The position numbers and the translations under genes are program-made. Shown here in pieces: positions 13,905 through 60,124 of a stretch of 64,000 nt of DNA. The stretch's first letter is position 1. Each line of letters begins with the position of its first letter. Location of the stretch: contig CM059431.1 in NCBI GenBank assembly GCA_030390025.1, positions 120,468,001 to 120,532,000 of the forward strand. The letters run 5' to 3'. A model generated the notes under the pieces. The model did not search any database and was not told the DNA's origin. It worked only from the letters and a program-made list of their open reading frames with translations. The stretch is from Squalus acanthias (lineage: Eukaryota).

Positions 13905-16205
13905 GGGCCAGATATTCCGATCCCTATGGGTGGGTACGCGCTGTGTACACACCCGTAGGGACATTGGAAATGCCGGTTTCAGCATGCACAGCGCATGCGC
14001 TGAAAACCGGCATTTCCGATCTGTCAAGAATGGTCTTGACAGATCCTTCGGCTGCACTGGAGAAGGGCCTCTGCGGGCGGATAGTTCCGCTTTTTGGAGA
14101 CCCTCCGCCCGCAGAAAACCCTTACAATTCTTCCCCGTAAAATACTTTAATTTTTTTTTTTTAATTACATTTTTGTTTAAAATACTTAATTTATTGTAAT
14201 TTCAAGTCATTTTAAAAATGTGTTTTTTTTTTCATTTATTTAAAGTTTTACTATGTTTTTTCATTGATCTCCATTCATATATTTGACAGGTCTTCCTGTC
14301 AAATGTATGAAGGGAGATTCCCTTCTGTGATTGGCTCCCCATGGCCCACGTGATCCCAGGGACGCTGTGAACTACATGCGCCCCTGGGGTACGTAGGCCC
14401 TGCGCACCTGCAGTTTGCTGAGGCCCATGTAAAGTTTCGCAATTATCGCGATTCGAAATAATGAGATAGAAGCAGATTCGCTTGATCAGTTTATTTAAAC
14501 GAAATGCTGTCATGATTAAACAGGACACAGAAGCCTGTAAAATGGCCGCCGTGCATCGTGGCAGAAGTTTCCAGAAGTACAGTGGGCAGACAAGATGGCG
14601 TGCGAATAAACATTTTCGATAAGCACTGATAAAGACAGGATGCAACCTGTTTGCATTTGTGACAATAGCAAAAGATATGAGTGCTGGAATCGTTTTCCAT
14701 GCACAAGTAAGGACCATTGTACTGGGCAATTGAAAGCCCATCCAGACACATCAATACACAAATACCCCCACGGCTCTACAATGAGAGAGCCATTCACGGG
14801 TGATTAAGTGAGTATTCGAGGAGGCCCCAAACCCAGTCAGGGAGACTCCTAGCCGGTTCGACAATGGGGAAAACATTAACGAGTAGTTGGCCAGCTTCAA
14901 GTGCTACCGAAACCCGTTAAAGAAGACAACCGCCCCATGCTGGGAGCTTTGTGCACCAGTATTACACAAAGGACAAACATTAAGATTTGGGCGGGAGATA
15001 AGGGAACACAGCACTATAACTATAGTGAACAAATGTCCATCACTCTCTTATCTCTCCTATCCTTATCCTCGGGTATCGCTCTGCTGGACGAGCAGCCTTC
15101 TGTGTTTTCTCTGCACTCTGTCGACTAATGTTGGGTGGAGCTCAATCGGGACGAGCCGCCTCGACGGAGGGCGCGTAACCGGGTGCACCATCCCGAGTGT
15201 CGGTAAACGGTGTTCTGGACCCGAAGGCCCGAAAAAGACAAGACAAGATGAGAAGAGAAGAAGAAGAGTCCACGTGCCGCCGCGGTCAGTAAACCCCGAC
15301 CGCGCCCGAAAATATATAGACCATTTTTGAACTCTATAGGTTGCTGCACGAACCAGTGAAAGACTCTTCTTCGAATTCTATCGACAACCGGTGTCGATAC
15401 AAGAAGACTCTTCTTTGAATTCTACCGGTAACTGGTGTCGGTCCAGGAAGACTTTTTCTTTGAGTTCTACAGCCGGGCCCGAGCACTGTCGAGTTCTTCA
15501 TGACAATGGGGAGCCCAGCCTGCTTGCAGCAGCAGCGAAGATAAACAAGTGGGGTACAGAGACCCCTCCAAACACGTGACAGTCAGGCGCTGCAGCGAAA
15601 CGAGCCGAGTGCCTCACTTTAAAATTCTCCGAAGTATCACGAGTGGTGAGCATGTTTCTCGATCCTACAAATCTAGATGTAGTGTAGGTATTAATAGGGG
15701 AGGGTGGTTTTATTAAGGATAAAGTATAATGTGTTCCCCTTTTTACGATGTGCCGTGCGTTCTTCATTACCATAGACCAAGCTTTATGAATGTATGTATA
15801 CTTGTACTATCGTTAATTTGTGCCGATGACATGTACTTCATGATTTTGGACGCTATGCAATAAAGATTTCCATTTCGTACTATTCAACCGGGTCTATTTG
15901 AGTTTTTCTCTGCATTACTGCTCTCGCACCTAAGTCCAGTGTTAGAACTGTAAGGGCGAGTGGGTCGAACCACTCACAGGTGCTTATTGCAACAAGGCTG
16001 GCCGGAGGCCAGAGCAAGCAATAGCATTAGGCAACGAAGGCCTAACCCCGCACCAGCACCATCTGCGATACAAGCACGACACACAAAAGCCCTTACACCC
16101 AGGAGCGGAAGCGTGTGTGTCCTGGGAGCCCTCAGGTAAGGGCGCTGATTTTTCCAGATCGCAGGCCTCCGCCCGCGGGAGGCCTGCGATCAGAAAATAC
16201 GGGCC
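13905..16205 (+). mobile_element. Non-autonomous Harbinger-type element hosting a solo LTR
   Basis: Colinear with the uninterrupted copy at 56883-57644; TIR gggccagatatt; flanks gtt/att. Confidence 0.85.
14428..16097 (+). mobile_element. Solo LTR (1670 bp) of an ERV or LTR retrotransposon
   Basis: TGTAA...TTACA termini; 4-bp TSD CCCA at 14424-14427 and 16098-16101; empty site visible at 57537-57545. TATATA at 15313 and AATAAA at 15859. Confidence 0.88.
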
Positions 16206-16535
16206 ATTGAAATGCAAAAGTCTGGGTCTGATGATGTGATTCAGAACCTGACTGAATTTTAATTGGCTTTCAGCCGGCCTCAGCAGGGATATCTGGTTCC
16301 AAGGAGCAGTACGCCAGACAGCCTGTTCCGCAATTCTTTTATGGCTGACCTGTACCTCAATCCGAATATTCCTGCCTTTGTTCTATATCCCGGGATACCC
16401 ATACCTAACAAAAATCTATCGATCTCAGTCTTGAAAATATCAATTACCCCAAAATCCATCGCTTTTTGTGGGAGAGAGTGCCATATTTCCACTACCCTTC
16501 ATGTGAAAAGTGCTTCTTAATTTCACTCCTAAATG

Positions 16536-17798
16536 TGGAGATGCCGGTGTTGGACTGGGGTGGACAAATGTGAGAAGTCGCACAACACCAGGTTATAGTC
16601 CAACAGCTTTATTTGAAATCACAAGCTTTCGGAGCACTGCTCCTTTAGCAGGTGAAGTGAAGAGAGCATATAGGCACAGCATATATAGTCAGAGAATACT
16701 GCCAGTGATTACAGTTAATCTTTCTAACTGCCCTTTATCACACCTCGGCAGAGAGATAATCACGGCAATCAAAGGTGTGGATGGTGTCCAAATAGGTCAG
16801 TCAGGAAAACATTACATCAAAGACAATGAGGTGGGGTCACAAGGGGTCAATTGTGGCAGATGCTGGGGTCTGTATGGAAAACAAAAAACTGTTTTTGCTG
16901 GAAATCACAGCAGGTCCAGCTGCATCTGTGTAGAGAGAACCAGCCTGGATGACTCTATGTCAGGTGGGGTTACATGTAGCGTGACATGAACCCAAGATCC
17001 CGGTTGAGGCCGTCCTCATGGGTGAGTAATTTGGCTATCAGTTTCTGCTCGACGATTTTGCGTTGTCGTGTGTCTCGAAGGCAACCTTGGAGAACGGTTA
17101 CCCAAAGATCGGAGGCTGAATGTCCTTGACTGCTGAAGTGTTCCCCGACTGGGAGGGAACACTCCTGCCTGGCGATTGTTGCGCGGTGTCCGTTCATACG
17201 TTGTCGCAGTGTCTGCATGGTCTCGCTGATGTACCATGCTCCGGGGCATCCTTTCCTGCAACGTATGAGGTAGACAACGTTGGCTGAGTCACATGAGTAT
17301 GTACCATGTACCTGGTGGGTGGTGTCCTCACGTGTGATGATGGTATCTGTGTTGATGATCTGGCATGTCTTGCAGAGGTTGCTGCGGCAGGGTTGTGTGG
17401 TGTCGTGGTCGCTGTTCTCCTGAAAGCTGGGTAATTTGCTGCGAACGATGGTCTGTTTGAGGTTAGGCGGCTGTTTGAAGGCGAGTAGTGGAGGCGTGGG
17501 GAACACTTGACACAGTTGACCCCTTGTGACCCCACCTCATTGTCTTTGATGTAATGTTTTCCTGACTGACCTGTTTGGACACCATCCACACCTTTGATTG
17601 CCGTGATTATCTCTCTGCCGAGGTGTGATAAAGGGCAGTTAGAAAGATTAACTGTAATCACTGGCAGTGTTCTCTGACTATATATGCTGTGCCTATATGC
17701 ATCTCTTCACTTCACCTGACGAAGGAGCAGCGCTCCGAAAGCTTGTGATTTTAAATAAAGCTGTTGGACTATAACCTGGTGTTGTGCGACTTCTCACA
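16536..17798 (-). mobile_element. Penelope-like element: GIY-YIG 3' end with a 3' pLTR and an inverted 5' pLTR
   Basis: ORF 16970..17506 has CxxC and GIY-YIG motifs. About 290-bp inverted repeat (16568-16855 vs 17508-17798). TSD tcactcctaaatg at 16523-16535 and 17799-17811. Confidence 0.9.
17712..17748 (+). ncRNA. Minimal type I hammerhead ribozyme (Penelope pLTR)
   Basis: UCAC-CUGACGA-A-GGAGC(AGC)GCUCC-GAAA-GCUU-GUGA: both conserved boxes, stem I, stem II and a palindromic stem III. Confidence 0.8.
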
Positions 17799-18605
17799 TC
17801 ACTCCTAAATGGCCTAGCTCTAGTTTTAAGATTATGCTTTCTTGTTCTGAATTCCAACATCAGAAGAAATAATTTACCTGTGTCTACCCTATCGAATCCA
17901 TTAATCATTTTAAATAGCTCGATTAGATCACCCCTCAACCTTCTAAAATCAAGGGAATACAAGTCACGTTTATGCAAAATGTCCTCATAATTTAGTCCTT
18001 TAAGCCCTGGTATCATTTTGGTGAATCTGTGTTGTGCCCCTTTCAAAGCCAATATTTCTTTCCTGAGGTTTGGTGCCCAAGACTGAACAGAGTACTGCAG
18101 ATGGGGTGTGACCAAGGCTCTGTACCACTGAAGCATTACTTTCTCACTTTTGAATTCCAACCTTCTTGAGATAAAGGCTAACATCCAGTAGCCTTTACGA
18201 TGACTTTTTCTACTTGTGCACCAGTTTCTAGCGATTTGTGCACATGGACACCTAAGTCCTCATCTACCATGCAAGATGTTTACAGATTAGCAGATCATAC
18301 ATTATTAATATGGACACTGTTCTGTACAGAGAGGGATATCTTTCCAAACTGGGTATCTTGGCAACCACAATATAATTATCTGGTGGTTGATCCTCAAAAG
18401 CAAGGATAAAAATCTAAATGAATGTAGAATACCATACTTTTGGAATTTAGTAACATCCATATGTGAACTAACCAACACATGCAAATTGTGCATAAGTTCT
18501 TTGAACACACAAATACAGATCAGTACGATGAGTAGTAGTTTATCCTCACCAGCTATCACTGTCACGGTCACAGTTACTTGAATAGTTTCACACTCAGTCA
18601 TAATG

Positions 18606-19760
18606 ACCTCAAATTTTACAGGGAGTTGCGGGAAGGGTGCACGGGAGCCTGGTAGCGGGTGCCGCACCCGGAGAGTTTGGGGACATGGAGGCCCTGCTGA
18701 TCTTAACGGCAGGGCCTTATTTGAATAAAACTTCCCGGATTCCTGCTGACGCCCAGCCCCAACCCCTCCCAACCTCCGATAGCTGTCCACATTATTCTTG
18801 TCGAGCCTGAAAAAGGACTCATGCTCCTTCAGGCCCCACAGAAATCATTTGAACCTTGACGATTTTTGGTCCTTTTCTCTGGAGCACTGGGTCAAACCTG
18901 ACGGAGAATGTTCCAACCAGTTGTCTCCCAAAAATGGCAATCGGGGTCCTATGTACATTATTATGGATATGATGCTGGACTCGAAACTCAGTGGTCATGC
19001 GCTTAAATCGCATGGCAAGCTGTAAAATTATTGGTCCAAAAATTGCAGTCCGCAGGGTAGCTCTGGAGTACGCTGCGGATCTGCGAAAAGAATACGCACC
19101 TATCTGATGGCGGCCCTTCTTCATAAACTTGCTCTCTGACGCTGGGGCTGGAGGGCAGCGTAATGACCCACGGATCCCAGGGATGCAGGCTGTGCGGAAG
19201 CGTACCTGGTATCACTTGGGCCTGGTCCTCCAATCAGAAAACAGATTGTGTTTCATTCATTTAAATTACTACATTAATACAGCCTTTAAAATACATACAG
19301 ACTTAGCTTTTATTGTGGGAATCCAATTCACTACTCATAATTCCCGCTTCTAAACAAATAATGTGCAGAAAGTTATGAAATGTAAACATTATTTTTTAAA
19401 AACTTATCAGCTTTAACATACAGTAGGATTTCTTCTCATTAAAGCTTTTAATGTTCCTGGATGTCATTTAATTTAAAAAAGCGTATTTTTTTCATTTCGG
19501 GTATCGCCTTATGCTGTGGAAACAGTGCCCTACGCCTTTTTCCAGCAGCCGTAAAATTTCCATACATAATTGCAAGGCAGTTGGTGGGTAATTAGCCCAA
19601 CTCTGCGCCAGCAATTCGTTTTTCGGTGGCGGTGCGGATGGCCTGTCAACGTTGACAGACCGCAAGTTCCGAATTTAGCGCGTACGCAAGCGGATGCGGA
19701 AATCCCGAACTTGCGGTGGATTTCAAAGGAGGTATGACGGCGTACTCTGAGATCCAGGCC
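18606..19760. mobile_element. Two adjacent or overlapping Harbinger-type non-autonomous elements
   Basis: gacctcaaattttac / gtaaaattattggtc ends; the second element (19033-19760) is flanked by att/att. Confidence 0.55.
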
Positions 19761-20167
19761 ATTATTTTTTTCAAATCTGGTAATTTGTGGGCGACCAACA
19801 TAAAATGATCATCAAACCTGATGGATTGTCCTAAAAAACCCAACAAGTTCACTAATGCCCTTCAGGGAAGGGGACCTGTCATCCTTACCTGGTCTAGCCT
19901 ACCTGGTCTGGCCTACACGCAACTATCGCACTACATTGGTTGACTTTTAACACCCTCAAGTCACTTCGGGATGGGCCACAAATCCTGAGAAGAAAATATC
20001 ATTAAAAAAAAAATCCTAACAGTAATATGCAGGCATCAAATATTAGATTGTATATTCAAATCCTTTGCTTAACAACATTTTCAAAAGTAAATGGATCAGA
20101 AATGTTATAACAGAAATAATTATTGTGAGATTGTTGAAAAACCTGACAATTGAATGATCAGAAACAT

Positions 20168-20352
20168 GGGTTAGAAATTGATCTCGGGCAACAGCCCAAA
20201 ACGAACGGTATCGGATCGGTCGCCCATTATACTCAGTGCCTGATATTCAGTCTGTTGACTGCAATGGAACTGAATATCAAGCACAGTGTATAATGAGCGA
20301 CCAATCCGATACCGCCCGTTTTGCGCCACCGCCTGAATCGAATTTCTAGGCC
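20168..20352. mobile_element. Palindromic Harbinger-type MITE (185 bp)
   Basis: Imperfect inverted repeat over its whole length; gggttagaaatt / aatttctaggcc ends; cat/aat flanks. Confidence 0.85.
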
Positions 20353-21439
20353 AATATTAAATTACAGTTCGTTATCAATGACTGTCTTCATCACTTAAGA
20401 TCACAGGATGACTTTGTGCTTCTGGCAGAGTCTTGACCACTGGGAGTGCACATTCGGAACTTGGGTACATGCTCCCTACCACTTTTCATCTACTAAAATT
20501 AATGTAAAATTGCCCAAAACATTCCAGAGGCTTGTGCAAAGACAACTACTAAAGGTTATAGCTGTAGGATTTATGATATATATGGGTCTTTCATACTTCT
20601 GAAAGCTATTTTATAAATCTCAGCCCACTGTGCCATCCAATACTTACTGTTCGGGTTTGCAACAAAACTGTTTCTCTCATTGAAGCTAAGAGTTAATTTC
20701 TGGAATAGAACCCTCTCAGCAGCTTGTGTTTCAAGGTTTAACTAAATTCGATGAACTTCAATAAGAGAAACTACATGGGGGATAACACGCTTGCCCTATT
20801 CATTTTGCAGGATTAATCTTAAAATCTCAGCGGTATCAGTTGTAAATAATCACTTGGCTATGACCGGTTACATTTGGCAAGTGATTATTCATAGGATCAG
20901 CTGAAGGTCAGCTGTGCAATGATGCTTTAAACTAATTAACTTAGTGCAAAGTGAAATCGCAGAAGAGAAGGAGTTGTGACAAGGTAGCAGTGGACATAGA
21001 CCGCAATCAATCAATGTACTCATTAAAAAGCAATTGGTTGTTCCCACTCTTGAAGTATTGTAATTATATATAGTTTGCTTTATTTCATTTATTTGGCTAA
21101 TATTTTCTAAAAATATTTTCAAATATAACTATTAGGGGTAAAAATTCAGTTGGTTGCGCCTCCCGTTAGCGCCTTAAATGGGCGCTAATGGGGCGTTAAG
21201 GCGCTAACGCCCGGGCACAGCGCTGTTTGCGCCACTCGAGAACTTAACTTGAGATTGTGCGGCGGCGCTAAAACTTACCGCTGCGACCACCTGCGCGCGC
21301 AGATTGTGACGTCATTCCGTGGTGCAACGCCCTTGGGGCGCCCCGGAGCGGAAATTGAGTGGCGCCCCCTGCCTTACCGCCTGGCGCTTCCAACGACCGG
21401 AAGACTGGAACGTTATCAATCGGTGTGGGGCTGGGGGGG

Positions 21440-21545
21440 GCGCTATTTAAAGGGGGCCTCTTCCTGTCTTTTTCTGTGGTCGACATTTATGCACCACTCG
21501 TTCTGAGAGAGAGAGAGAGATTCGGAGAGAGAGAGAGAGAGACTT
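21440..21545 (+). promoter_or_regulatory. Putative transposase promoter (TATA-like TATTTAAA followed by a (GA)n tract)
   Basis: GC-rich subterminal region, then ctatttaaagggg, then a GA microsatellite about 100 bp upstream of the ATG. Confidence 0.4.
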
Positions 21546-21646
21546 CTACATTGACTCAACGCTTTGTGAGGTAGTTTTGCCTAGTTCATCCTAACTTTGC
21601 TGCTACTTTTGTTGCTGTACCTCATTACTTTTCTGGCAAAGAGAAT

Positions 21647-22807
21647 ATGGGGGCTGCAATGATTGGGGGCGTCGTCCTGCTCCAGCTCAATCGGAGGAGA
21701 GTGAGACGCAGACAGAGAGTGGCAATGATGGCCAGACGGAGGAGGGCCATCAGGCGCATGTACAGGAGAGCTTACCCTCCCAGGGTATATCGTGAACAGC
21801 TCTCCTACATCCACATGTCCGAGGAGCTGTGTTTGCGAAGGCTGCGATTCAGCAAGGAGGTGGTCACTGAGCTCTGCCACCTGCTGCAGCCAGATCTGCA
21901 GCCTCAGCTGAGGTCCAGGACGTCTCTGTCGGTGGCAGTGAAGGTCACAGTGGCTTTGAACTTCTACGCCACTGGCTCATTCCAAGCTGCTGTTGGGGAC
22001 CTCGCCAATATCTCCCAGTTTGCGGTGCATCGCTGCATCCGGCAGGTCACCAATGCCCTCTTCACAAGGAGACGAGACTTCATCTCCTTCCCTATGACCC
22101 CAGACAAGCAGCATGACCGTGCTATGGGCTTTGCGAGGGTAGCGGGCTTCCCCATGGTGCAGGGCGCCATTGACTGCACGCATGTGGCTTTGCGTGCTCC
22201 GCGAGAGAATGCAGAGGAGTTCTGGAACAGAAAGGGGTTCCATTCCTTGAATGTGCAGTTGGTCTGTGACCACAGACAGGTGATTCTCGCTGTCAATGCC
22301 CACTATCCGGGCAGCTGCCACGATGCTTTCATCCTGCGCCAGAGTACTGTGGCAGAAATTTTCGAGGCACCGCATCAGCCAGTTGGTTGGCTTCTGGGGG
22401 ACAAGGGGTACGCATTGAGCACCTGGCTGATGACACCGCTCCGTGCGCCAAACACCCCTGCTGAGCTGCGGTACCAGGAAAGCCAACAAGCAACGAGGAA
22501 CATTATTGAGCGCACAATCGGCGTGCTCAAACAACGATTCCGCTGTCTGGACCATTCCGGAGGAGCCCTGCAGTACTCGCCTGAGCAAGTTTCCAAATTC
22601 GTAGTGGTGTGCTGCATGTTGCACAACATGGCAATCCTCAGGACGCAGCCAATGCCACCAGGCCTTGCAGCACCACAAGAGGAGGAGGAGGAAGAGGAGG
22701 AACAGGCCGAGGACGATGATCAGCAGCAGCACCAAGGCAGGAGGGCGGCCCACAATGGTCAAACTGCAAGGGCCGTCCGTCAACGACTAATAGCAAGCCG
22801 CTTCTAG
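21647..22807 (+). CDS. Harbinger (HARBI1-like) DDE transposase, 386 aa, uninterrupted
   Basis: Motifs [56 protein letters not shown] and CCMLHN. N-terminal HTH-like region (LNFYATGSFQ) and an acidic C-terminal tail. Confidence 0.95.
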   Translation: MGAAMIGGVVLLQLNRRRVRRRQRVAMMARRRRAIRRMYRRAYPPRVYREQLSYIHMSEELCLRRLRFSKEVVTELCHLLQPDLQPQLRSRTSLSVAVKVTVALNFYATGSFQAAVGDLANISQFAVHRCIRQVTNALFTRRRDFISFPMTPDKQHDRAMGFARVAGFPMVQGAIDCTHVALRAPRENAEEFWNRKGFHSLNVQLVCDHRQVILAVNAHYPGSCHDAFILRQSTVAEIFEAPHQPVGWLLGDKGYALSTWLMTPLRAPNTPAELRYQESQQATRNIIERTIGVLKQRFRCLDHSGGALQYSPEQVSKFVVVCCMLHNMAILRTQPMPPGLAAPQEEEEEEEEQAEDDDQQQHQGRRAAHNGQTARAVRQRLIASRF

Positions 22808-22918
22808 GGCCCCTGCCAGTGCTACAAACACGAATCAACCCAGCACGCAACCCCTAAGCCGGCCAAGGCACCAATAATTCCAACCACCAGCCATGTATAT
22901 TTTGAATACAGAAACTTA

Positions 22919-22974
22919 TTTATTGTACAAACTCTGTGTGTGTCAATTCCTCATGACAAACTCATAGAAATAAA
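22919..22974. terminator. Convergent polyadenylation signals between the two Harbinger genes
   Basis: AATAAA on the minus strand (tttatt, 22919-22924) and on the plus strand (22969-22974), lying between the two stop codons. Confidence 0.55.
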
Positions 22975-23101
22975 CACAAAAAAACAGTCAATAACATAAC
23001 TGGTTCTCACAACCTGGAGATAATGTCCAAAACACTAAACAAAAGTTGGGCCATGAACCTCGGCCTTTAATAAAAAAATGACCAGCATTTTGGCACACCT
23101 C

Positions 23102-24255
23102 CTACTTTTTGCCCTTCGAGGGTGATCTCCTTCCCTTGCGCACTTCCCCCCTTCTAACCCTACTGCTCCTCCGTAATGGGACCTCAGTGGCTGCAGCAAG
23201 GCTGGTGGAAGGCTGCTGCTTGTCAGACCCTGACACTGCAGATGCCCCTGAAGGACGGCCTCGACCACTTCTGGGCCTGGAGGGCCCGGCTGCAGACTGC
23301 ACCAACTCTGCATGGGCGGCAGCAGTCTGTCCTACAGGCGGTGGCAAGTGCAGTGGAGAAGTGACAGTGTTGGCAGCAGGAATGCTGTCATCGTGAGAGA
23401 GGACAGCAACTCCCTGCTCGCCCGACACACTGGCACTCCCACGGGGCAGCACTTCAGCATCCGGAGCAATTTGCTGGAGAACAGATTGCTGGCCTGCTGC
23501 GGCGCGGTGACAGCCCCGGGGACATGTGCACGAACCATCGAGGATGGCAGCAGTCAGTGCTCGCGTGGCCTCAATCTGAGTCTGCATGAGAGCAGGCTCA
23601 GATGGGTTCCTGGCAGCCAGTGACTGAATTGCAGCAGTAAGCTTTAGTGTGGCATCCGCCTGTGCTACAGCGAAGTGCTCCACACTCCTTGCCAGTGCCT
23701 CAATGCATTCGGGCACCCTTCCCACTGCACCCATGAGCTCAGTGTGCATGACCACCGCCTGGCTGTTCATTTCTGCAATCAGCCGCTCCTCCTCTGCGTC
23801 CATTGCATTAGGAGTGTCTGGCATGCTCTCCCTCTGGGGAGAAGGCTCCCGTTCTTCCCTCCCCCCCCCATGGCGTTGCTGCAGCCCGCTGGGTCCTGGA
23901 ACTTCACCATCATCAGCCCCTTCCCCCCTGCTCCCCCGTTCTTCCCTCCCCCCCCCATGGCGTTGCTGCAGCCCGCTGGGTCCTGGAACTTCACCATCAT
24001 CAGCCCCTTCCCCCCTGCTCCCCCGTTCTTCCCTCCCCCCCCCATGGCGTTGCTGCAGCCCGCTGGGCCCTGGAACTTCACCATCATCAGCCCCTTCCCC
24101 CCTGCTCCCCTCCGGGGAAGGCGTGTTCCCAGTGTGGCCATGGGCTTCCTCGGGAGAGGGTGGCACTGATGCTCCGGCTTCCTCTTCCTCCTCAGCTGCA
24201 GCATCACTCCCAGTGGCAGCTTCAGGGACCATCTCCTCAGCTGGTGAATCACCAT
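23102..24255 (-). CDS. Myb/SANT partner, exon 3 (acidic/low-complexity region, helical middle, basic C-terminus); spliced product 517 aa
   Basis: CCCTGCTTTCAG acceptor at 24256. The phase-1 join is in frame with ORF 23102..24232. Exon lengths 237+163+1154=1554 nt with no internal stop. Confidence 0.85.
23848..24110. repeat. 87-bp in-frame tandem repeat x3 (29 aa) in partner exon 3
   Basis: GSRGEGADDGEVPGPSGLQQRHGGGREER occurs three times with nearly identical DNA. Confidence 0.95.
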
Positions 24256-24414
24256 CTGAAAGCAGGGAGGTACAAGAGTGGCTTTAGCGTGCGGACAGGG
24301 TGGCAGTAAGGGAGGAATAAGTGCAGCGAGTTAGCAAGTTGGATTGAAAGTGTCAAAGGCTGGTATTGTGAGGGACAAGTGGAAGGACAGAGGACAAAAA
24401 GGTGATGACCTTAC

Positions 24415-24577
24415 CATTGCTGTCCACAACGGGGTCGGCGTCTCCAGTGGCGACGGGACCGATCACCCGGCTTGCCACAATCCTGTGGACGCGCTCCTCC
24501 AGATCGCTGAGGGGTTGCAGCTGAAGCCGCCCTCCACCCATCCGTTGCTGCTGTCTCCGATTATGAGCCAGCTTAGC
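24415..24577 (-). CDS. Myb/SANT partner, exon 2
   Basis: TTTTTCTTGCAG acceptor; AKLAHNRRQQQRMGGG...LSDLEERV; G|GTAAGG donor, phase 1. Confidence 0.85.
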
Positions 24578-24611
24578 CTGCAAGAAAAAGGACAGCATCT
24601 GAGTCAATATA

Positions 24612-24720
24612 CAGCCATGGTCTTGCCTGATGTGCCTCCCATAGGTGAATAGCCCTTACTGTATGCAGCCATGGTCTTGCCTGATGTGCCTCCCATAGGT
24701 GAATAGCCCTTACTGTATGC
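24612..24720. repeat. 54-bp perfect tandem duplication in partner intron 1
   Basis: cagccatggtcttgcctgatgtgcctcccataggtgaatagcccttactgtatg starts at 24612 and again at 24666. Confidence 0.95.
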
Positions 24721-24861
24721 AAAGTGTGGAATGTGTGTGTGTGTTTGATGAAAGGGCCATAGGTGTTGCATGAGTGTTGTGCATTGGGGTTTTAAGACCC
24801 TCTGGCCATAGAGTGAGGTTGAGATGGAGGGATGGAGAGGTATTGAGAAAAAGCCACTCAC

Positions 24862-25098
24862 CCTGACGACCCGAGTGAGGTCGTTGAACTTTTTGCGGCA
24901 CTGGACATGGGTCCTGGGCACCATGCTCCTGGAGGAGACGCTCTGAGCCACCTCCCTCCACACTCTTCTGAACTCGCGTGGCAAAGGCCTCCTGCCACTC
25001 TCCGGGAACAGCATGCATCGTCTGCGCTCCACTGCGTCAACCAGAGCATCCAAGGCCCGCTCGGTGAAGCGATGAGCGCGTTCTCTCACCCTCTCCAT
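24862..25098 (-). CDS. Harbinger Myb/SANT (trihelix) partner protein, exon 1
   Basis: ATG at 25098; MERVRERAHRFTERALDALV...VWREVAQSV...RTHVQCRKKFNDL is a Myb/SANT-like domain. Ends at an AGG|GTGAGT donor, phase 0. Confidence 0.88.
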
Positions 25099-25838
25099 GC
25101 TTGGCAGCAAAATGGATTACAGGTCTCTCCAGGCTGAGATTCAAGGCTGCAATGAGCAGGGTGTGGCTGGGGAGCAAGTGGCCCCCCCCGCTTTAAGAAG
25201 TGTCCGGCGCCAGTGTGTCTGTGTTCCCTCGCTAACTGGCAGCAGCTGCGCTGCGCTCGTGCGCTGAGTTAGCGCCTCACTCCTAGGCCTTTGCGCCTTA
25301 AGAGAGGTGTGCAGCGCCTAATTTAGCGCTCCACTCACCTCCCGGGGCGGTAAAAGTGAAGTTTCCTGTCAGTGCCGATAATTAGCGCCAGGCGCTAATA
25401 TTTGCGCGCGGACGATATTTGCGCCCCAAATGGGGCGCGACCTAATTTCTACCCCTTAGAATTTACTAAATATCAGAATATCAGTTTTACCAATTTAGGT
25501 CACCCTGCAAAATTAAGAAAGGAAACATTACATTTTCTATATCTAAATCAAAAATGATTTCTTTCAAAGTAAAAATAGTGTTATATTTTCATAGCTTGAA
25601 GTAGCGCTCAGAATGTTGATGGTTCCTCTGCTTGATCTTGGACAATGCTGTATAACGTTGCAGGATAACTATAATGGTTGTGCTGTGTCTTGTAACCCAT
25701 TTAATGTGCTAACACAACAGGCATTGATGAAGAACTGAAAATTCAATCTTTGAAGTAACTTTTATTACTCATTGCAGACTTTTGGGCAAATATTTGTACA
25801 TATATTTAAGGCAGGTTTACAAAGAAATGAAGGTTCAT

Positions 25839-27985
25839 GGGGAGAATTTTAACATGGGTGAGCGGGTGGGATTGGGTGTGGGTGGGGGGTTAAGTGGGTA
25901 AAAATTCCGAGCGCGTCGGGAAGCCGGCTCCAACCTGTCGACTTCCGGGTTTTGCTGAGGCGGGACAAGGGGCGGGCAGCCAACCCGCTCCCAGGAGGCG
26001 GGTTGGCATTTTTTTAAAAAGCAGAAAATGCTGGGAATACTCAGCAGGTCAGGCAACATCTGTGGAGAGAGAAACAGAGTTAATGTTGCATGTCGATGAC
26101 CGTTTGTCAGAACTGGAAAAAGTTAGAGATGTAAGAGAGTTTTAAGCAAGTGTGGGGCAGGGAAAGGGGGAGGGAAAGAAAGAACAAATGAGAAGGTCTG
26201 TGATAGGGTGAAAGGCAGGAGAGATTAAAAGACAAAAGGGACGATGGTGCAAGGCTAAAGGAGATAGTAATGGGAAAGTTAAGAAAAGCTAAGTCTAGAT
26301 GAGGTGTAAATGGGAATGGCAGAATCATCAACAGCTGCCATGTGAAAATAAAAATAGGGGCCGAGGTTATGGTCTGAAATTGTTGAACTCGATGTTGAGT
26401 CCAGAAGGCTGTAAAGTGCCTAATCGAAAGATGAGAAGCTGTTCCTCGAGCTTATGTTGAGCTTCATTGGAACAGTGTAGTTCAGCCAGGCGGACGAGGG
26501 TGGTGGTGGATGGGGACTGGTTGGGCCTCTGTTGAAGGAAGAAGTGGAGCGCCCTCAGGCCGTCCTGGTGGGGGATGGAGGTGTAGAGGGATTGGACATC
26601 CATAGTGAAAAGGAGATGTTTGGGGCCAGGGAACTGGAAACTTTTAAAGTGGCGGAGGGCATCGGAAGAGTCGCGGATGTAGGTGGGAAGAGACTGGACA
26701 AGGGGAGAAAAAATAGAGTCGAGATAGGAAGAAATCTGTTCAGTGGGGCAAGCATAGGCTGAAACGATGGGTCTGCCAGTGCAGTCCTGTTTGTGGATCT
26801 TGGGAAGGAGGTAGAAGCGGGCTGTGCGGGGTTGGGGAACTATGAGGTTGGCGGCCATGGAGGGAAGATCTCCAGAGGAGATGAGGTCAGTGACAGTCTT
26901 GGAAACGGTAGCTTGATGTTCGGTAGTGGGGTCATGGTCCAGGGGGAGGTAGGAGGAGGTGTCGGAGAGTTGGCGTTCAGCCTCCGCAAGGTAGAGGTCA
27001 GTTCGCCCAACAACAACATCGCACCCTTGTCAGCAGGTTTAATGACAATGTTGGGTTTGGATCTGAAAGAATGGAGTGCTGCAGGTTCAGAGGGAGGTAA
27101 GTTGGAGTGAGGGAGGGAACAGTGAAATTGAGACGGCCGATGTCATGCCGGCAGTTTGCAATGAGAAGATCTAGAGAGGGTAAGAGGCCACTGCGAGGAG
27201 TCCAGGTAAAACGAGAATTCTGAAAATGGGAAAAAGGGTCAGCTGTGCAGGGGGAAGACACCTGGCCAAAGAAGTGGGCACAGAGATGAAAGCGATGGAA
27301 AAAGAGCTCAGTGCTGTGCCGAGCTCAAAATTCATTGAGATGTGGGCGTAAGGGGAGGAAACTCAGACCTTTGCTGAGGACTGATCGTTCGAGGTCAGAG
27401 AGGGGAAGGTCAGAGGGGATAGTGAAAACACGGCAGGGGGTGAGATTGGAAGGAGGGATGGGGTCAGAGGAAAGTGAAGGGGAAGAAGGTTCCGAAGGGG
27501 TGTTGGTGTCCAGGAGTTGTTGGCATTTTAAATATGCTAATGAGGTTAGAAGCCTCAGATTTAACCTGCTTTGCAGGTTTTACTGAGGCCGGCCGGGTTT
27601 CCTGGACCCCTGGAAACCCGGCAGCTGCAGCGAGGTAAGGACAGCCTCGGAGAGAAGCTAAGTGCCTTCACAGAACTCCTTGTGGGCCAAAAGGAGCAGG
27701 AGTGCTTCCTCCAAGCCCACCAAGCACCCCCACCATCAGATCCCCTCCCCCCATTCAAAGCCCCTGGGATTGGATACCCTCTCCCGAGTTCGGGGATCGA
27801 ACCTACCTGATCCTGTGTTTCTCCCCGATCGACAGAAAGCCAGGCCTGTCAATCAGGCTGACTACCAGGCTGGGAACCTGTTAAAACTCCACAGCATGTG
27901 GTGACCTCCAAGTTTCCCGTCCAAACCTCCGCGCCCACCCCCACCCACTCCCGGCTATGCAACCTGCCCCAGTAAAATCCAACCC
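25839..27985. mobile_element. Harbinger-type non-autonomous element hosting a Penelope-like insertion
   Basis: ggggagaatttt / aaaatccaaccc TIRs with CAT TSD on both sides. Confidence 0.8.
26013..27518 (-). mobile_element. Penelope-like family 2, internally deleted (RT N-terminus fused to the GIY-YIG tail, plus pLTR)
   Basis: FYLLPKIHK..GRPIVS..LFTMDVQSLYTSIPH are PLE RT motifs, followed by EQLLIFRLGTLQPSGLN. TSD gttggcatttt at 26002-26012 and 27519-27529. Confidence 0.88.
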
Positions 27986-28168
27986 CATACTTTTTTGTTT
28001 CCTTTGCAGATAAATGTCATTAACACACACTGCAGGAAAACTAATAGCACCTATCTTTTGGATAAAATTTCCCTGACACAATTTGTGATTTATTCTTTCA
28101 CATTTAAATGGCCTGTACCGTAGATTAAACCCTCATTCACTGATTTAGGGGTAAAGATTAATTATCAA

Positions 28169-30769: not shown

Positions 30770-31010
30770 TGAAATGTGGAAACTGGTAGTGGAAATCTGG
30801 AACTCGCTCCCCCATGAAGCTGTGGATGCTGGGGGGTCGATTGAATATTTCAAAAATGAGTTTGATAGGTTTTAGTTAGGCAAGAATATCAAGGGTTATG
30901 GTCCAAGACAGGTAGATGGAGTTAAGATCAGCCATTATCTAATTGAATGGCGTAACAGGCTCAAGGAGCTGAATAGCCTATTCATGTTACTATATTCCTA
31001 TTTTCCTATG
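30770..31010 (+). mobile_element. CR1 3' fragment
   Basis: gtagtggaaatctggaactcgctcccc... (VVEIWNSLP) followed by the 3' UTR. Confidence 0.75.
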
Positions 31011-31730
31011 AAATTCAAGACTGAATTCCTGCCTATAATCTTTTGCCTGCCAGCTACAACTTTTTAAATATATAAATTTGCTTTTTTAGTCTCTGTCATG
31101 ATCTCAGTTTTCCGCTGTCACTGGGTGATGTAAACTTACAAGGTGCTTCATAGAATATCAGATCTATGCAATGATGTGGCATGTGACATTGGGCTGGTGA
31201 TGTAAAATAATACAAAATGTCACCAAATATTGAACTTTTTTGGACGGGGATCTGCAATTAAATTCACATTCACCATATAATAGCAGGTTATTTTTCTTTC
31301 CAATTAGTTGCAACTAGAAGTGTAATACAGTTCCATTGTATTTTCACATTAGTTGCACAGTTAATACAATGGTGTACAAATTGGTAGGTGTTGCACCCAT
31401 ATTTTGGTCGTAAAACATCCCAATTTAGCCGTGGTACAGCCTGGGCCCAACCTGTACTGCGCCCTTCATTTCCTTCACAAATCTCCGAAGAACTTTGATG
31501 GCAGAATGGATGTTCAGTTATGATGATTTAAGCACCGGGAAAAGGAAGGAAATAAAACACTTGAGAGTCTGCTTTTCGTCAAATCTGACAATTACAGCTT
31601 CTGACACGTGCCTGTTGAGTTGAATAACATTTCGAAAAGGATCCGTGTGGCTGATTTGATCATCTTGATTGGGCATAATAGGTCACATCCCTTAAGTTCG
31701 ACTTTTTTTCATAATGTTGTAAGATATTTA

Positions 31731-31924
31731 GGGGGAAAAATTTGGTTGCTTTGCGCCTCCCGTTAGCGCCCTAAGAGGGCGCTAACGGGGCGCAATGCAA
31801 CTAGCGCCCGGGCGCAGCGCCGCCAACACTTCCCTCTTGGGGTGCTACCACTCAATTTCGGCTGCGGGGGCGCTGCCCCGGCGAAGTTAGCGCCCCAAAG
31901 GGGGCGCAACTCAATTTCTCCCCC
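31731..31924 (+). mobile_element. 194-bp Harbinger MITE cognate to the 21135-25455 element
   Basis: TTA TSD at 31728-31730 and 31925-31927. Left end shares ttgcgcctcccgttagcgcc...gggcgctaa.ggggcg and right end shares gcgccccaaa.ggggcgc.ac..aatttct.cccc with the autonomous element. Confidence 0.92.
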
Positions 31925-32409
31925 TTAAGATCAAACTTTTCCCACCCTATCCAAAAGTTTTTCAGAAAGCTCTTGGAAGCGTTAGAAAGCTGTAAAGGAC
32001 TTCCAAAGCAGATCTTTGAAAGCGGAGAGAATGTTTAATAATGGAAGTTGAAAGGTTTAAGAATAGTTAAGCGTTTAGACAAAATAAAAAGAAGGCTGCA
32101 AAGTATGTCACAGCAGATAATGTAACAGTTTGAGTTTCTAAGCACAGAAAGAAGGTACAGTATAACTATACAGGGAATTATACTAACTACAAGGTTAACT
32201 AAAGCAAGAAAAAGGAGAAAGAAGACTGAAGACTTGCCCAATGCTACAGCAGCCAACCTACTATAAAAGGGGAGTTTTATGTCTTCTATTTATGTCACAA
32301 AGGGACAGCTGTAACATTGGAAATTACCAAGTAATATTTTGAATACAGACTAAAAGAATAACCTCCTAAACCAAATTGGGAATCTTGGACATCAGGTGTA
32401 ACTTTGCCT

Positions 32410-32775
32410 CAATCTTACAATTCTCATCCTTGTGTTTAAAACCTTCCATGGCCATGCCACTTCCCTATCTCTGTAACCTGCTCCAGCCCTCATAGAAATC
32501 TGCTTTCGCCAAATCTGGCCTCACGTATCCATACTTCCTTCATCCCATCACTGGCAGCTGTGTCTTCAGCCGTCTAGGCCTTAAGCTCTGGAATTCCCTT
32601 CCTAATACTCTCTGCCTCGACACCTCTGTCTCTTCCTTTAAGGTGCTCCTTAAAACCCACCTGTCCTAATGTCTCCTTCTTTGGCTTGGTGTCAATTTTT
32701 GTCTGATTACATTCCTGTAATGTGCCTTCAGACATTTTACTATGGTAAAGGCGCTATCTAAATGCAAGTAGTTGT
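32410..32775 (+). mobile_element. L2 3' fragment
   Basis: Similar to 29695-30070; ends aaggcgctatctaaatgcaagtagttgtt. Confidence 0.8.
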
Positions 32776-33534: not shown

Positions 33535-34172
33535 AAGCCAGAATTTTGATGTTTAGGCCCATTGGGAGCGGTCCCCACACACTGTGGAATTTTAACTCCA
33601 CAGCGTGCGTGTGACGTCACCGGCAGGTTCCCCGCCCGGACATCAGCCTGATTGACAGGCTGGCTTCCAGTTGGGTGGGGAACGCTGGACAAGAGGCCGC
33701 AACCCCAAGTAGGTGCGAGCCCCGATCCCGAGGAGGGGTGGGGGGGTCCGATCCCGGGGGGGGTCGGTGGGGGGGTCCAATTCCCTTGGGGGGGTTTGTG
33801 ATCACTGGCAGGGTGGGGTGGGGGGGGGGGGAGCTGTGAGGCACTCCTGCTCCTTCCGGCCAACAAGGATTGCTCTCCGTGGCTGTCCTTGTCTCGCTGC
33901 AGCTGCCGGCAATCCCAAGGCCCGGGATTCCCGGCTGGCCACAGTCAAACCTGCACAGCAGGTTAAATCCGAGGCTTCCAGCCTCATTATAATATTTAAA
34001 GTGCCAACCCGCCTCCTGGGAGCAGGTTGGCTGCCCGCCTCCCCGTCCTGCCTCCGTTAAACCCGGAAGTGAGCAGGTTGGAGGTGCATTGGAGTATCGG
34101 GAGTCACAATTTTAATAATTTTGTCTCCCACATGACCCCAACCCACCCGTTTTTGGGGATAAAATTTCCCCT
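33535..34172. mobile_element. Harbinger-type non-autonomous element (related to 25839-27985, opposite orientation)
   Basis: aagccagaatttt / aaaatttcccc ends; shared cagcctgattgacaggctgg and ccaacccgcctcctgggagc motifs. Confidence 0.7.
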
Positions 34173-37497: not shown

Positions 37498-39024
37498 GGG
37501 GTGAATTTTTCTGGGGGTCAGCGGGCACATTCGGTGGTGGGTCAGGTGGGAAATTAGTTTTTTGACAGTGGGTCGGAACCTCGCTGTCAACCCGCCGCCA
37601 CGTGACATTCACAGATGTTGGGTCTGTCAGGGCTGAACAGACCCGACACGCAGCGGCAGGGGAGGCAATTCAGGTCATTATGACTTGTTAACAGCCCATT
37701 AAAAAGTATTTTGAGCTCATCTTACCATTTTATGCTGCTCAGGAATCTTGTTGTATGACCATGGAATCATCTCATTAATTGACAGCTGCAAATGTACTAG
37801 AAAAGCTCCCATCTCATAGCTGTTCAATTTCCAACCTCAGAAGCTGTTGCTTACTGCATTTGGAAGATTGATTGAGCTTTATGGAGGTTGCAAGTGTTTG
37901 GAGCAAACTCTCTATTGAGTGTCACCTCATTGGAACAACCTCTCTCACCATTGACAGATCATTTCTGTCATCTCAACTTCACCTGCCATCTATTACATCA
38001 GCATCGGTGCCCTTGAAAAATTCTCACCTTGGTCCTCAGAATCCCACGATGATCAGCCCCAACACCAACAACATCACCGGGCACACCAGCAGTACGAACA
38101 ACAACACCAGCCTTCTCCACAAATCAACTGATGCTGCACAGGACAGAGGACATCAGCACCCGACCACTATGCTGCCCGGGATGCCAGGGATGGCCTCACC
38201 ATGGCCAGATTTACTTCACTTGACACTGTACACTCTAGCTGTCATGTGATGTGCCAGGTTGGCACCACCCCACACCAACACCATAAAGCACCCCTACAAT
38301 GCCCAAGCCATTCCTTTCACACTCACCAACATTGCGGGGGGTACCGTTAAGTCTCACCATTCACTGCAACTCACTAAGACACTTCCAAAGGTGCACACAA
38401 ATCTGTCTAAGAATGCAAAGTGTTGAAAATAAAGATTTCAATGTTTGACACCACATTAACAGAAACTTTACATGAACATTGGGTAAAACACAAAAGTGGC
38501 TACCCTTGTGTGTTGTTAGTTGGAATGATTAGACTAGGATGAGGGTGAATGTGAGAGGTGGCTAGTGAGATGGGGAAGTGATAATGTAGATAGAGAGGGA
38601 TGGGCGGAGGTGCAAGGTAAGTTGGTGTGAGTAAGGATGAGCAGGAGTAGGGTAGGAAAGGAAGAGTGATGGGGATCTGATGAGTGGCACAGCAGGATGA
38701 GGTTGAGTGTGGCTTTGCAGTAACATTTCGTGATCTACTGAGATCATTGAAAGGTTTGTGCCACTGCAGCCTGGTCCTCCTGATGACATCCCTGCTTGTA
38801 CATTCTGTGCAATGTGCAACCAGGCTGCATTGGTCTCTTGGGGAGGTCTCTTCCACCCATGGGAAGGGAAGAGAACCTCCCTGCGTGCTGTGACTCCCTC
38901 CATAAGCATATGGAGGGAGTCTGGGAGAGCCTGGGTGCAGCCTTGCACCTCTGTGCAGTGCTTGTCAGTGTTTGCAGCACCTCAATGCTGTAGAAAACTG
39001 ACAGCACAACTGTCAAAATAAATT
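37498..39024 (-). mobile_element. Internally deleted Harbinger derivative (copy of 46909-48696 lacking its left end)
   Basis: Reverse-complement colinear with 47130-48696; ggggtgaatttt terminus. Confidence 0.85.
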
Positions 39025-39479: not shown

Positions 39480-40102
39480 CCCAGAAGTTCGGGTTTCTCC
39501 CTATCCTGTGGAGTTTTGACTCCACTGCGTGCTTAGTTTTTTTCCTGTAGGGTCCCCGCCCAGAAGTCAGCCTGATTGACAGGCTCGGCTTCCAGTCAGG
39601 TGGGAAACACTCCGGAACAGGCCATAGCCACAGGTAAGGAGCCTGCAGCTGCTACTGAGAATGTGGGGGCGGTCCAATCCCCGGCCCAAGGTGGGGATGT
39701 CCAATCCCAGGATGGGGTCCGATCCCCGACCCCGGGGGTCTTTGCATGGTGGGGGGGGGGTGGGGGGTTATGATGGAAGGGGAACCTGGGGTACTGGGAG
39801 AAAGCATTCCTTCTCCTCCTGGCCCACAAGTAGTGCTGTAAAGAAACATGCCTTCTCTCCGAAGCTGTCCTCATCTCCCTTCAGCTGCCGGGTTTCCCAA
39901 GCACTGGGAAACCTGGCCGGCAAAGGGTTAAACTTGAGAAGCAGGTTAAATCTGAGGCTGCCAGCCTCCTTAAAATATTTAAATGTTGAACTCACCTTCA
40001 GGGCAGGTTGGAGGTGGGTTGGGGTCGGGTTTGAGATTTTTAAAGTGTTAAAATCTCACCCGACCCCAACCTGCCCATTTTTGGGGGGTTAAAATTCAGC
40101 CC
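39480..40102. mobile_element. Harbinger-type non-autonomous element (partial)
   Basis: Similar to 33535-34172; right TIR aaaattcagccc. Confidence 0.65.
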
Positions 40103-46908: not shown

Positions 46909-48696
46909 GGCCGAGATTTCACCTACCGAGGCAGGTCCAGTACGGTCGGGTTCGGTGGCGGGGTGCGACCCCTCCGCTGGCTCCATCCCGCTCTGTGAAA
47001 ATAATTTTACGATGATTGGGCTTGTTCAGCCCGCCCAGCATATTTCCCAGCCAATTGAAGGAAGCGGGTCTGATGACGTCACTTGCTGACAAGTCATCAG
47101 CCGGTTTCCTTAAAGGGACCATACGCAAATTTATTTTGACATTTGTGCTGTCAGTGTTCTACAGCATTGAGGTGCTGCAAACACTGACAAGCACTGCACA
47201 GAGGTGCACGGCTGCAACCAGGCTCTCCCATGACGCCCTCCATATGCTTATGGAGGGAGTCACAGCACGCAGGGAGGTCCTCTTCCCTTCCCATGGGCAG
47301 AAGAGACCTCCCCAGGAGATCAATGCAGCCTGGTTGCACATTGCACAGGAGGGCACAAGCAGGGATGTCGTCAGGAAGACCAGGCTGCAGTGGCGCAAAC
47401 CTTTCAATGACCTCAGTAGATCACAAGATGTTACTGCAAAGCCACACTCAACCTCATCCTGCTCTGCCCCTCATCACATCCCCATCACTCTGCCTTCCCT
47501 ACCCTACTCCTGCACATCCTTACTCACACCAACCTACCTTGCACCTCCACCCATCCCTCTCCATCTACATTATCACTTCCCCATCTCAATAGCCACCCCT
47601 CACACTCACCCTCATCCTAGTTCAATCATATCAACTAACAACACCCAAGGGTAGGCACTTGGGTGTTTTAGCCAATGCTCAGGTGAAGTTTCTGTTAATG
47701 TGCTGTCAAACATTGAAATCTTTATTTTCAACACTTTGCGTTCTTGGACAGATTTGTGTGCACCTTTGGAAGTGGCTTAGTGAGTTGCAGTGAATGGTGA
47801 GACTTAACGGTACCCCCCGTAATGGCGATGAGTATGAAAGGAATGGCTTGGGCATTGTAGGGATCCTTTATGGTGTTGGTGTGGGGTGGTGCCAACCTGG
47901 CACATCATGTGGCAACCAGGGTGTACAGCATCAAGTGAAGTAAATCTGGCCATGGTGAGGCCGACCCTGATGTCCCGGGCAACAATGTGGTCGGGTGCTG
48001 ATGCCCTGTGTCCTGTGCAGCACCAGCTGATTGAGGAGAAGGTTTGTGTTGTTGTTGGTGCTGCTGGTGTGCCTGGTGCTGCTGGTGTTGGGGCTGATCA
48101 TGGTGGGATTCTGAGGACCAAGGTGAGATTTTTTCAAGGGCACCAATGCTGATGGAACAGATGGCAGGTGAGGTTGAGATGACAGAAGCATTCTGTCAAT
48201 GGTGAGAGAGGTTGTTCCAATGAAGTGACACTGGATAGAGAGTTTGCTCCAAACACTTGCAAGCTGCAAAAAGCTCAATCTGTTTTCCAAATGCAGTAAG
48301 CAACAGGCTTCTAACCTTGGAAAGTGAAGACCTATGAAATGGGAGCTTTCATAGACCATTTGCAGCTTTCACGTTAAGAAATTATCCCATGCTGACACAA
48401 CACCCGACCTCCTTACCTGACGTGATCCCCGAGCAGTGGGGAAGCCATTGGCAAAATCTAAAAATCTAAAGGTAAGCATAAAATACTAGTTATTTGCCTC
48501 TGAACAATCCAGCTAATGATTTAAATTGCCCCCCCTGCCGTTTGGTGTCAGGTCTGTTCAGCGATGACAGACCCGACATCTGGGAGACTAGCGTGGAGGT
48601 GGGTTGACAGCGAGTTCCCTACCCGCTGTCCAAAAAAACATTTACCCAGCCGACCCGCCACCAAACGCGCCCCCAGACCCCCAAAAAATTCCGGCT
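46909..48696 (+). mobile_element. About 1.8-kb internally deleted Harbinger derivative inserted in a DeuSINE head
   Basis: ggccgagattt / aaattccggct ends. Myb remnant EGVTARREVLFP..AWLHIAQE..WRKPFNDL plus convergent transposase N- and C-terminal remnants. Confidence 0.82.
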
Positions 48697-59026: not shown

Positions 59027-60124
59027 ATGGGTGCTGCTTATGCTGTTTCACCTTGGACCTCAGATTCTGACCAAGATGAGCCCCAGCACCAACAACACCA
59101 ACAACAGCAGCAGTTTCTTTCTCCTCAGCAACCTGAAGCTCCACCGGAGAGAGGGGATCAGCACAGGGGTGCACCGTGCTGGAGGCGATACCCCCAACAC
59201 AGGGTATACAGGCAGAGGATGAGCTTACTGGACATGACTGAGCAGCAGTGCCTCAGGAGGCTCAGGCTATCACACCAGGTCGTGACAGACATTTGTAGCT
59301 TGCTGGAAGACGACCTGCTGCCCAGAGGAACTAGTGGACATGCCTTACCAGTGACTGTCAAAGTCAACACTGGCCTCAACTTCTTCACCTCAGGCTCCTT
59401 CCAAGGATCTGCAGCAGACATTTGCAGGATTGCGCAGTTCGACTTTATGGCTCTGGCTGGTTTCCCACAGGTGCAGGGCATCATCGACTGCACACATTTG
59501 GCCATCAAGGCATTCCCAGATCACCCAGGAATGTTTGTGAACCGGACGAGCTTCCACTCCCTCAATGTGCAGCTCGTCTGAAACCACAAAATGATCATCA
59601 TGGATGTGTGTGCCAGATTCCCAGGGAGCTGTCATGACTCTTTTGTCTTGTGCCAATCCACCCTCCCTCAGCTCTTCTCACCTCTGAACAAACTTACCAG
59701 CTGGCTGCTTGGAGACAAGGACTGTCCACGTGGCTGATGACACCCTTGAGGAGGCCAAGCAATGATGCTTAGGAGCGCTATAATGAAAGTCATATGATGA
59801 CCAGATGTGTCATAGAGCAAGCAATAGGCATGCTGAAGATATGCTTCAGATGCCTTGACAGATCTGGAGGAGCCCTCAGTACGCAGCAGCCAGGGTTTCC
59901 AGAATGATAATCGTATGCTGCGCACTGCACAGCAGCGAGGATTGGAGCTGCAGGAGGAGCAAGGCACAAAGCGCACAGCCTCTTCGGAGGAGGTGGAGGA
60001 ACAGGTGGAACACAAGGAGGAGGAGGAGAAGGAGGAGGAACCTGAGATGGACATGGCACCAGCAGCGGTGTACATTGCTTCCTGGGAGGCCCGGGACAGC
60101 CTCAGAATGCCCCGATTTAGTTAA
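59027..60124 (+). pseudogene. Harbinger transposase pseudogene
   Basis: MGAA start, [28 protein letters not shown] and WLLGDK; deletions and frameshifts. Confidence 0.92.

Follow-up and report, generated by a model that had tools for sequence, protein, structure and literature searches.

The 194-bp stretch at 31731..31924 (plus strand) of the 64-kb window, meaning the whole stretch of DNA analysed here, is a real, ordinary and old member of a very abundant Harbinger-type group. The most probable account, held with some reserve, is that it is an old, non-autonomous element (MITE) whose clade, a large Harbinger group of elasmobranchs, has NuwaII-type features, and that it derives from a family that is sister to the intact two-gene Harbinger nearby (hereafter H) and not from H itself. 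Its value is modest and descriptive, end-only similarity to an autonomous partner being the norm for the PIF/Harbinger superfamily. Comparison of the MITE with H points to a 15-bp target and to a candidate motif for Myb binding; the two elements also make a cheap test pair for the cross-mobilisation tolerance of ~20% end divergence. A teleost survey reports no Harbinger in the elephant shark and recommends other cartilaginous fish for study (PMC9179366). Among the open-access papers searched, none devoted to elasmobranch Harbinger MITEs was found, nor any description of the family of the MITE.

The MITE and the neighbouring two-gene element

The coordinates of the MITE are exact. In contigs of four runs, hundreds of unrelated flanks diverge from the window at 31729-31731 on the left and at 31924-31925 on the right, and TTA stands directly outside both borders. 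The duplication is read from the sequence alone, the joints listed (15 of 28) including no empty site. The MITE has the features of PIF/Harbinger (Tourist-like) elements in that it is short, non-coding and bounded by TIRs, carries a TTA (TWA-type) duplication and has ends homologous to those of an element with DDE and Myb genes. Its parts are as follows.

31728..31730 (no strand): left TTA triplet beside the MITE, read from the sequence
31731..31924 (+): non-coding Harbinger-type element (MITE), 194 bp, with borders broken by hundreds of unrelated flanks
31731..31749 (+): left TIR, 19 bp, starting with GG, symmetric with the right TIR at 16/19
31731..31820 (+): left segment, with homology to H 21135-21223 at 73/90
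31751..31795 (no strand): left subterminal palindrome with four T[AT]GCGC in two inverted pairs, a candidate Myb-protein binding array
31821..31874 (+): middle, non-collinear with H by alignment, containing a reverse TIR-like motif at 31848-31869
31875..31924 (+): right segment, also present in a longer sister family, including the right palindrome (31885-31911) and the right TIR; it matches H at 39/50, and at 32/38 over its last 38 bp
31906-31924 (+): right TIR, symmetric with the left TIR at 16/19
31925..31927 (no strand): right copy of the target-site duplication (TTA), read from the sequence

The MITE holds 18 CpGs in its 194 bp, an observed/expected ratio of 0.90 versus 0.43 for the window, and lies 6,275 bp from H. 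Its fold is strong (z -9.3) because of the TIRs and the two subterminal palindromes. A scan that paired Harbinger-like ends among 45 plus-strand and 49 minus-strand candidates returned four pairs, of which only the MITE and H have a perfect 3-bp duplication. The features of H are listed below.

21135..25455 (+): H, a structurally intact two-gene Harbinger of 4,321 bp, with TTA directly outside both ends and 14/19 TIRs
21647..22807 (+): 386-aa transposase ORF, matching Pfam DDE_Tnp_4 (E 8.6e-38) and containing D176, D252 and E288
23102..25098 (-): Myb/SANT-like gene, predicted three-exon model, 517 aa open, with Myb_DNA-bind_5 in exon 1 (E 5.7e-09)
25270..25424 (no strand): right subterminal cluster of seven T[AT]GCGC from a motif scan, only the last of which falls within the 38 bp that H has in common with the MITE

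The residues D176, D252 and E288 of the transposase are taken by us to be the catalytic triad, after HARBI1-type enzymes. The top database match of this protein is a sawshark 'putative nuclease HARBI1' (65% identical), and the best relatives among the 120 best of 371 matches are shark and ray proteins of the same name, at most 66% identical. From these relatives, the host is very probably an elasmobranch with many Harbinger families. The predicted exons of the Myb/SANT gene lie at 25098-24862, 24577-24415 and 24255-23102, with splice sites chosen by eye. The last Myb exon contains a near-perfect, in-frame 87-bp triplication (99%, 23848-24110), and within the first Myb intron 54 bp are duplicated (98%, 24608-24721); both look recent, and the reading frame is still open.

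Ends, subterminal motifs and target sites

The left ends of the MITE and H match at 73 of 90 positions (81.1%, local score 96) and the right ends at 32 of 38 (84.2%, local score 47), or 39 of 50 without gaps. None of 1000 dinucleotide shuffles reached either score (maxima 30 and 29). Positions 91-156 of the MITE (66 bp) showed no forward collinearity with either end of H, the forward scores being equalled by 164 and 614 of 1000 shuffles. A 22-bp reverse match (score 35, 0/1000 shuffles) joins 31848-31869 to an internal TIR-like motif at 21341-21362 of H. This internal motif (21341-21370), which lies about 210-235 bp inside the left end of H, also matches the right TIR of the MITE in reverse at 19/20; the right TIR thus resembles the internal motif more than H's own right TIR. 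Altogether, only 128-140 of the 194 bp (66-72%) can be aligned to H, at 78-84%. The 80-80-80 convention asks members of one family for 80% identity or more across 80% or more of the element, and the MITE, with 66-72% of its length aligned, falls short of this with H.

The 140 aligned bp contain 28 differences, of which 13 are transversions, 14 are transitions and 1 is a gap. CpG loss in the MITE fits no more than two of them, and two CpGs kept by the MITE are lost in H. Position 5 of the TIR is G at both ends of the MITE and T at both ends of H; mismatches between the elements number three in the first 15 bases on the left and three in the last 15 on the right, and H departs from the MITE at 5 of 12 bases within 31875-31886. 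The TIRs of the MITE are the more symmetric (16/19 vs 14/19), as is its left palindrome (-25.3 vs -15.3 kcal/mol for H), and the right palindrome folds at -12.0 vs -9.7 kcal/mol. Given these kinds of change, the CpGs lost in H, the paired difference at position 5 and the more perfect palindromes of the MITE, the MITE is not a decayed copy of H. The pattern of differences fits two lineages descended from a common ancestor.

The motif T[AT]GCGC occurs seven times in the MITE, as compared with a shuffle mean of 0.7 and no shuffle of 1000 with seven. In H, six copies lie in the first 200 bp, seven in the last 200 bp and two in the 3,920-bp interior, and the other 59,487 bp of the window contain 23. 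In zebrafish Harbinger3_DR, a Myb-like protein binds a 9-bp subterminal motif and carries the transposase to the nucleus (PMC9710019, PMC2836001); by analogy, the T[AT]GCGC arrays are likely binding sites of the Myb protein. The motif clusters of H extend 131 bp inward on the left and ~185 bp on the right. The stretches shared with the MITE take in four of the six left motifs and only one of the seven right ones, so the overlap of the two elements does not delimit what H requires.

The earlier note had described a CpG-rich MITE with a TTA duplication ~6 kb from H, which the above figures confirm, and had placed homology to the ends of H in its first ~80 and last ~35 bp; pairwise alignment bears this out, with a left match slightly longer than claimed. 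It had further proposed an independently mobilised member of the H family, no fresh deletion of that copy, and here the result is divided: the 28 differences, 13 of them transversions, and the two CpGs lost in H agree with the absence of a fresh deletion, whereas membership of the H family is not supported, 98-175 contigs per run matching the MITE better than H does. The proposal that the MITE defines the minimal cis-ends of H is not borne out, most of the motifs of H on the right lying outside the shared stretches.

Flanks of other copies read AAA(C/G)AC before and GT(C/G)TTT after the triplet in all four runs, which gives a palindromic 15-bp site. In four of four runs this consensus puts C on the left of the triplet and G on its right, and the central triplet can be read from those rows only with bias. 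The sites in the window, T-TTA-A for the MITE and A-TTA-G for H, are without the full C..G context and fit 4 and 7 of the 12 flank letters, respectively, by eye. The central target triplet of Harbinger3_DR reportedly differs from that of the MITE and H. A 15-bp target preference has been described for vertebrate Harbingers (PMC2836001), and the NuwaII group is defined by a C-TNA-G target together with GG termini (PMC4482050).

Related ends in public runs and the age of the insertion

Contigs from 4 of 24 public runs, namely two samples of organism A, one of organism I and one of organism J, were aligned to 31000-32420 at 80% likeness; runs X6-X21, with a small share of words, were left out. 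Organisms I and J come from one study and were counted as one lineage. Each run placed 14,143 to 24,712 contigs on this region. The summed contig depth, which is not equal to copy number, was 12-37 over most of the flank versus 1.2-2.5 million over the left part of the MITE. Contigs leaving the borders of the MITE numbered at least 731-1,188 on the left and at least 365-635 on the right per run, and a rough estimate that allows for up to 31-fold overlap inflation suggests 3,000-140,000 copies of the left end and 400-27,000 of the right end. The commonest class of likeness to the MITE was 90-95% in all four runs. Related ends are dispersed in thousands.

A longer right end was found in every run (98, 148, 170 and 175 contigs), matching the MITE back to 31875 and then continuing, collinear with H 25376-25405 at 19/30 (~63%) by eye. 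On the left, continuations behind 31819 (35 contigs, run X2) and behind 31834 (167 contigs, run X24) overlap in register and resemble the left end of H at 22/30 and 18/30, respectively, by eye. All these sister-end sequences are 30-letter consensuses of mixtures, with an agreement of 0.61-0.82. The gap-free pieces listed that end at 31834 carry 15-20 other letters; if they carry that continuation, with about 10 differences in their last 15 bases, they would be ~89-94% like the left end of the MITE, versus 81% for H. From these sequences, longer elements of H-type architecture with ends closer to the MITE are common. Judging from the loose-end consensus, 9 bp that the sister family has just ahead of 31875 may be missing from the MITE. 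Run X2 also contains a left-end variant (61 contigs) whose TIR follows H at positions 13-19 and the MITE at position 5, so that the borders between families are blurred. The earlier note had named a better match to a different autonomous family, together with a lack of mobilisation by the H proteins, as what would refute its reading. This is borne out by half: a longer family does match better in all four runs, and no coding sequence tied to the sister ends was seen among their contigs.

The middle bin (31816-31863) is covered about tenfold less deeply than the left end; left-end contigs that simply extend four bases into the bin would account for 68-91% of its depth. Among the pieces listed (32 of 84,276, the longest and some at joints), none from other loci spans more than 108 bp of the MITE. 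Joints within 31761-31875 reveal, at other loci, shorter two-ended variants that skip 106-131 bp of the middle, as well as head-to-tail tandem copies.

In organism A, both junctions of the MITE are present in both samples, whose left pieces differ from the window at 5 of 752 and 3 of 757 letters. Its single-copy contigs end 21-29 bp inside the MITE (pieces 31000-31751, 31000-31756, 31903-32420 and 31896-32420); such stops would be expected, from graph branching, if many other copies carry the exact terminal letters. For organisms I and J, the right junction is bridged by one contig that covers 31799 to 32420; of its 622 letters, 29 differ from the window and 13 are gap letters, only 2 of which fall within the flank indel listed. 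The left flank of these organisms differs at 33/627 and 32/627 bases (~5%). Their depth hole at 31624-31719 (drop at 31624-31671) was not counted as evidence, and the age argument draws on the right junction.

Since the right junction is occupied in I and J, whose flank has diverged by ~5%, and sharks mutate slowly, the insertion is old; it probably predates the split that left this divergence. The epaulette shark mutation rate is given as 7e-10 per base per generation (PMC10587355). Dating by this pedigree rate yields 1.9e7-1.9e8 generations per lineage; as the rate belongs to another species and the result probably overshoots, only 'old' is retained. At 31160, 31509 and 31530, the samples of organism A share letters unlike those of the window, and I and J carry the letter of the window. 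The window may represent another population or a close sister of organism A.

Origin of the MITE and comparison with known systems

In the account favoured here, internal deletion or rearrangement of an element of H's sister family would have produced the MITE. By analogy with tested PIF/Harbinger systems, a Myb/SANT protein would have bound the arrays of subterminal palindromic motifs and recruited its DDE transposase in trans, which would then have cut at the GG ends and pasted the MITE into a TTA site, where it would have remained since before the host split from the two relatives. H would be a cousin with proteins that might or might not recognise the ends of the MITE. Similarity limited to the termini, together with mobilisation in trans by two proteins, is a described pattern (PMC13668399, PMC2836001).

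An unlikely competitor is a remnant formed in place: the original insertion would have been a longer element of the sister family that was shortened or rearranged afterwards, so that the 194-bp form never moved as a unit and has no amplified family. The thin coverage of the middle, much of it attributable to carry-over from the left end, points this way, as do the lack of longer pieces from other loci among those listed and the gap letters of the I/J copy that exceed the flank indel. However, a homogeneous high-copy family broken into short contigs would give the same picture, contig depth being no measure of copy number, and the joints that skip part of the middle indicate that shorter two-ended forms exist elsewhere; moreover, both ends of the MITE and its duplication are intact. 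It is improbable that the MITE is instead a member of the H family, moved by H-type proteins (perhaps in a local hop), with its ~90 and ~38 bp as the minimal cis-ends of H. This would suit the shared TTA duplication, TIR type and motif layout, the 81-84% identity at both ends over a separation of 6.3 kb and the open state of both H genes; furthermore, Ping and Pong cross-mobilise at protein identities of 62% and 77% (PMC2836001), and action of H proteins on the MITE is therefore possible. Against it stand the better-matching ends in the contigs, the limited length alignable to H, the inward reach of H's motif clusters and the apparent age of the insertion. In mPing, single changes in both TIRs mostly abolish transposition, and internal sequence matters too (PMC9921582); the MITE differs from H in this manner at position 5 of both TIRs. 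The closeness of the two elements is not decisive: with the genome assumed at 3-6 Gb, the chance of a copy within 6.3 kb of H is 0.2-1.3% at 1,000-3,000 copies and 6-34% at 30,000-100,000, thus ranging from 0.2% to 34% over plausible copy numbers.

A chance GC-rich palindrome or an RNA gene is extremely improbable. Weak Rfam hairpin matches were found, the best reaching 27.4 bits to mir-6644 versus a gathering score of 82, and all four were far below gathering; the shuffle test of the end alignments (0/1000) and the sharp borders against unrelated flanks in the contigs refute this explanation. It is doubtful that H is still functional and that its Myb protein reads palindromic T[AT]GCGC arrays across sister families, so that H can cross-mobilise the MITE. 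If true, this would provide a vertebrate transposon of two proteins with a 15-bp target preference and a donor of less than 200 bp, with no need for reconstruction from a consensus.

Among known systems, the Tourist-like mPing with Ping/Pong (PMC2836001, PMC9921582) is likewise short and non-coding, with short TIRs, a 3-bp TTA/TAA duplication, an extended target preference and related two-gene (DDE and Myb) elements in the same genome. The 5' TIRs of mPing, Ping and Pong are identical over 15 bp, whereas the MITE and H differ at three of 15 positions at either end; the MITE is, in addition, old and known from its sequence. The NuwaII group of the PHIS superfamily (PMC4482050), which includes the turtle Harbinger-CPB families and the 402-bp Xenopus Harbinger-2N1A_XT, shares GG termini, a TIR length in the range of 13-46 bp and an autonomous partner of ~4.3 kb with DDE_Tnp_4 and Myb/SANT; the C and G on either side of the triplet in the family's flank consensus may agree with its target as well. 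However, the 12 species listed in that report include no shark, the sites in the window are without the full C..G, and the likeness extends to described features only.

Zebrafish Harbinger3_DR and Harbinger3N_DR (PMC2836001, PMC9710019) share the 15-bp vertebrate target preference and the two-protein system. Binding of a short subterminal motif by a Myb-like protein was demonstrated there and would apply to the MITE and H by inference; the motif is different, and Harbinger3_DR was reconstructed from a consensus, whereas H is open in its natural state. In sea kraits, Harbinger-Snek (PMC8437027) offers a comparable case of Harbinger expansion in a vertebrate, its numerous short non-autonomous variants retaining the duplication and the terminal motifs. 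It represents a recent horizontal transfer of a single family, in contrast to the many diverged families and old insertion described here.

Other candidates in the window were considered. Broken Harbinger transposases at 1127-2315 (minus) and 59213-59933 (plus) are 42-59% like the H transposase, and each is followed by the apparent remains of a convergent second gene; their mutual DNA likeness is 72-77%. Both were rejected as parents of the MITE, which gave no BLASTN match there. Matches in metagenomes to a 20-mer common to both left ends proved to be chance at five of five loci (54-65% GC, similarity over at most 20-22 bp, no transposase). MITEs of the Kolobok/T2 type have a TTAA duplication, and this type was rejected because the left flank is not TTAA.

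Several further repeats lie in the window. A palindromic element of ~185 bp with Harbinger-like ends (~20168-20352), about 780 bp before H, is unrelated to the MITE in sequence, and no clean duplication was read at it. A Harbinger-like non-autonomous element (25839-26008 and 27519-27990) is seemingly split by a LINE-like insertion (about 26009-27518) and has reverse relatives at 33873-34008 and 39757-39921. Finally, an inverted repeat pair of ~1.5 kb (37548-39024 vs 47128-48646) is 77-96% alike by segment, its copies lying 8-10 kb apart.
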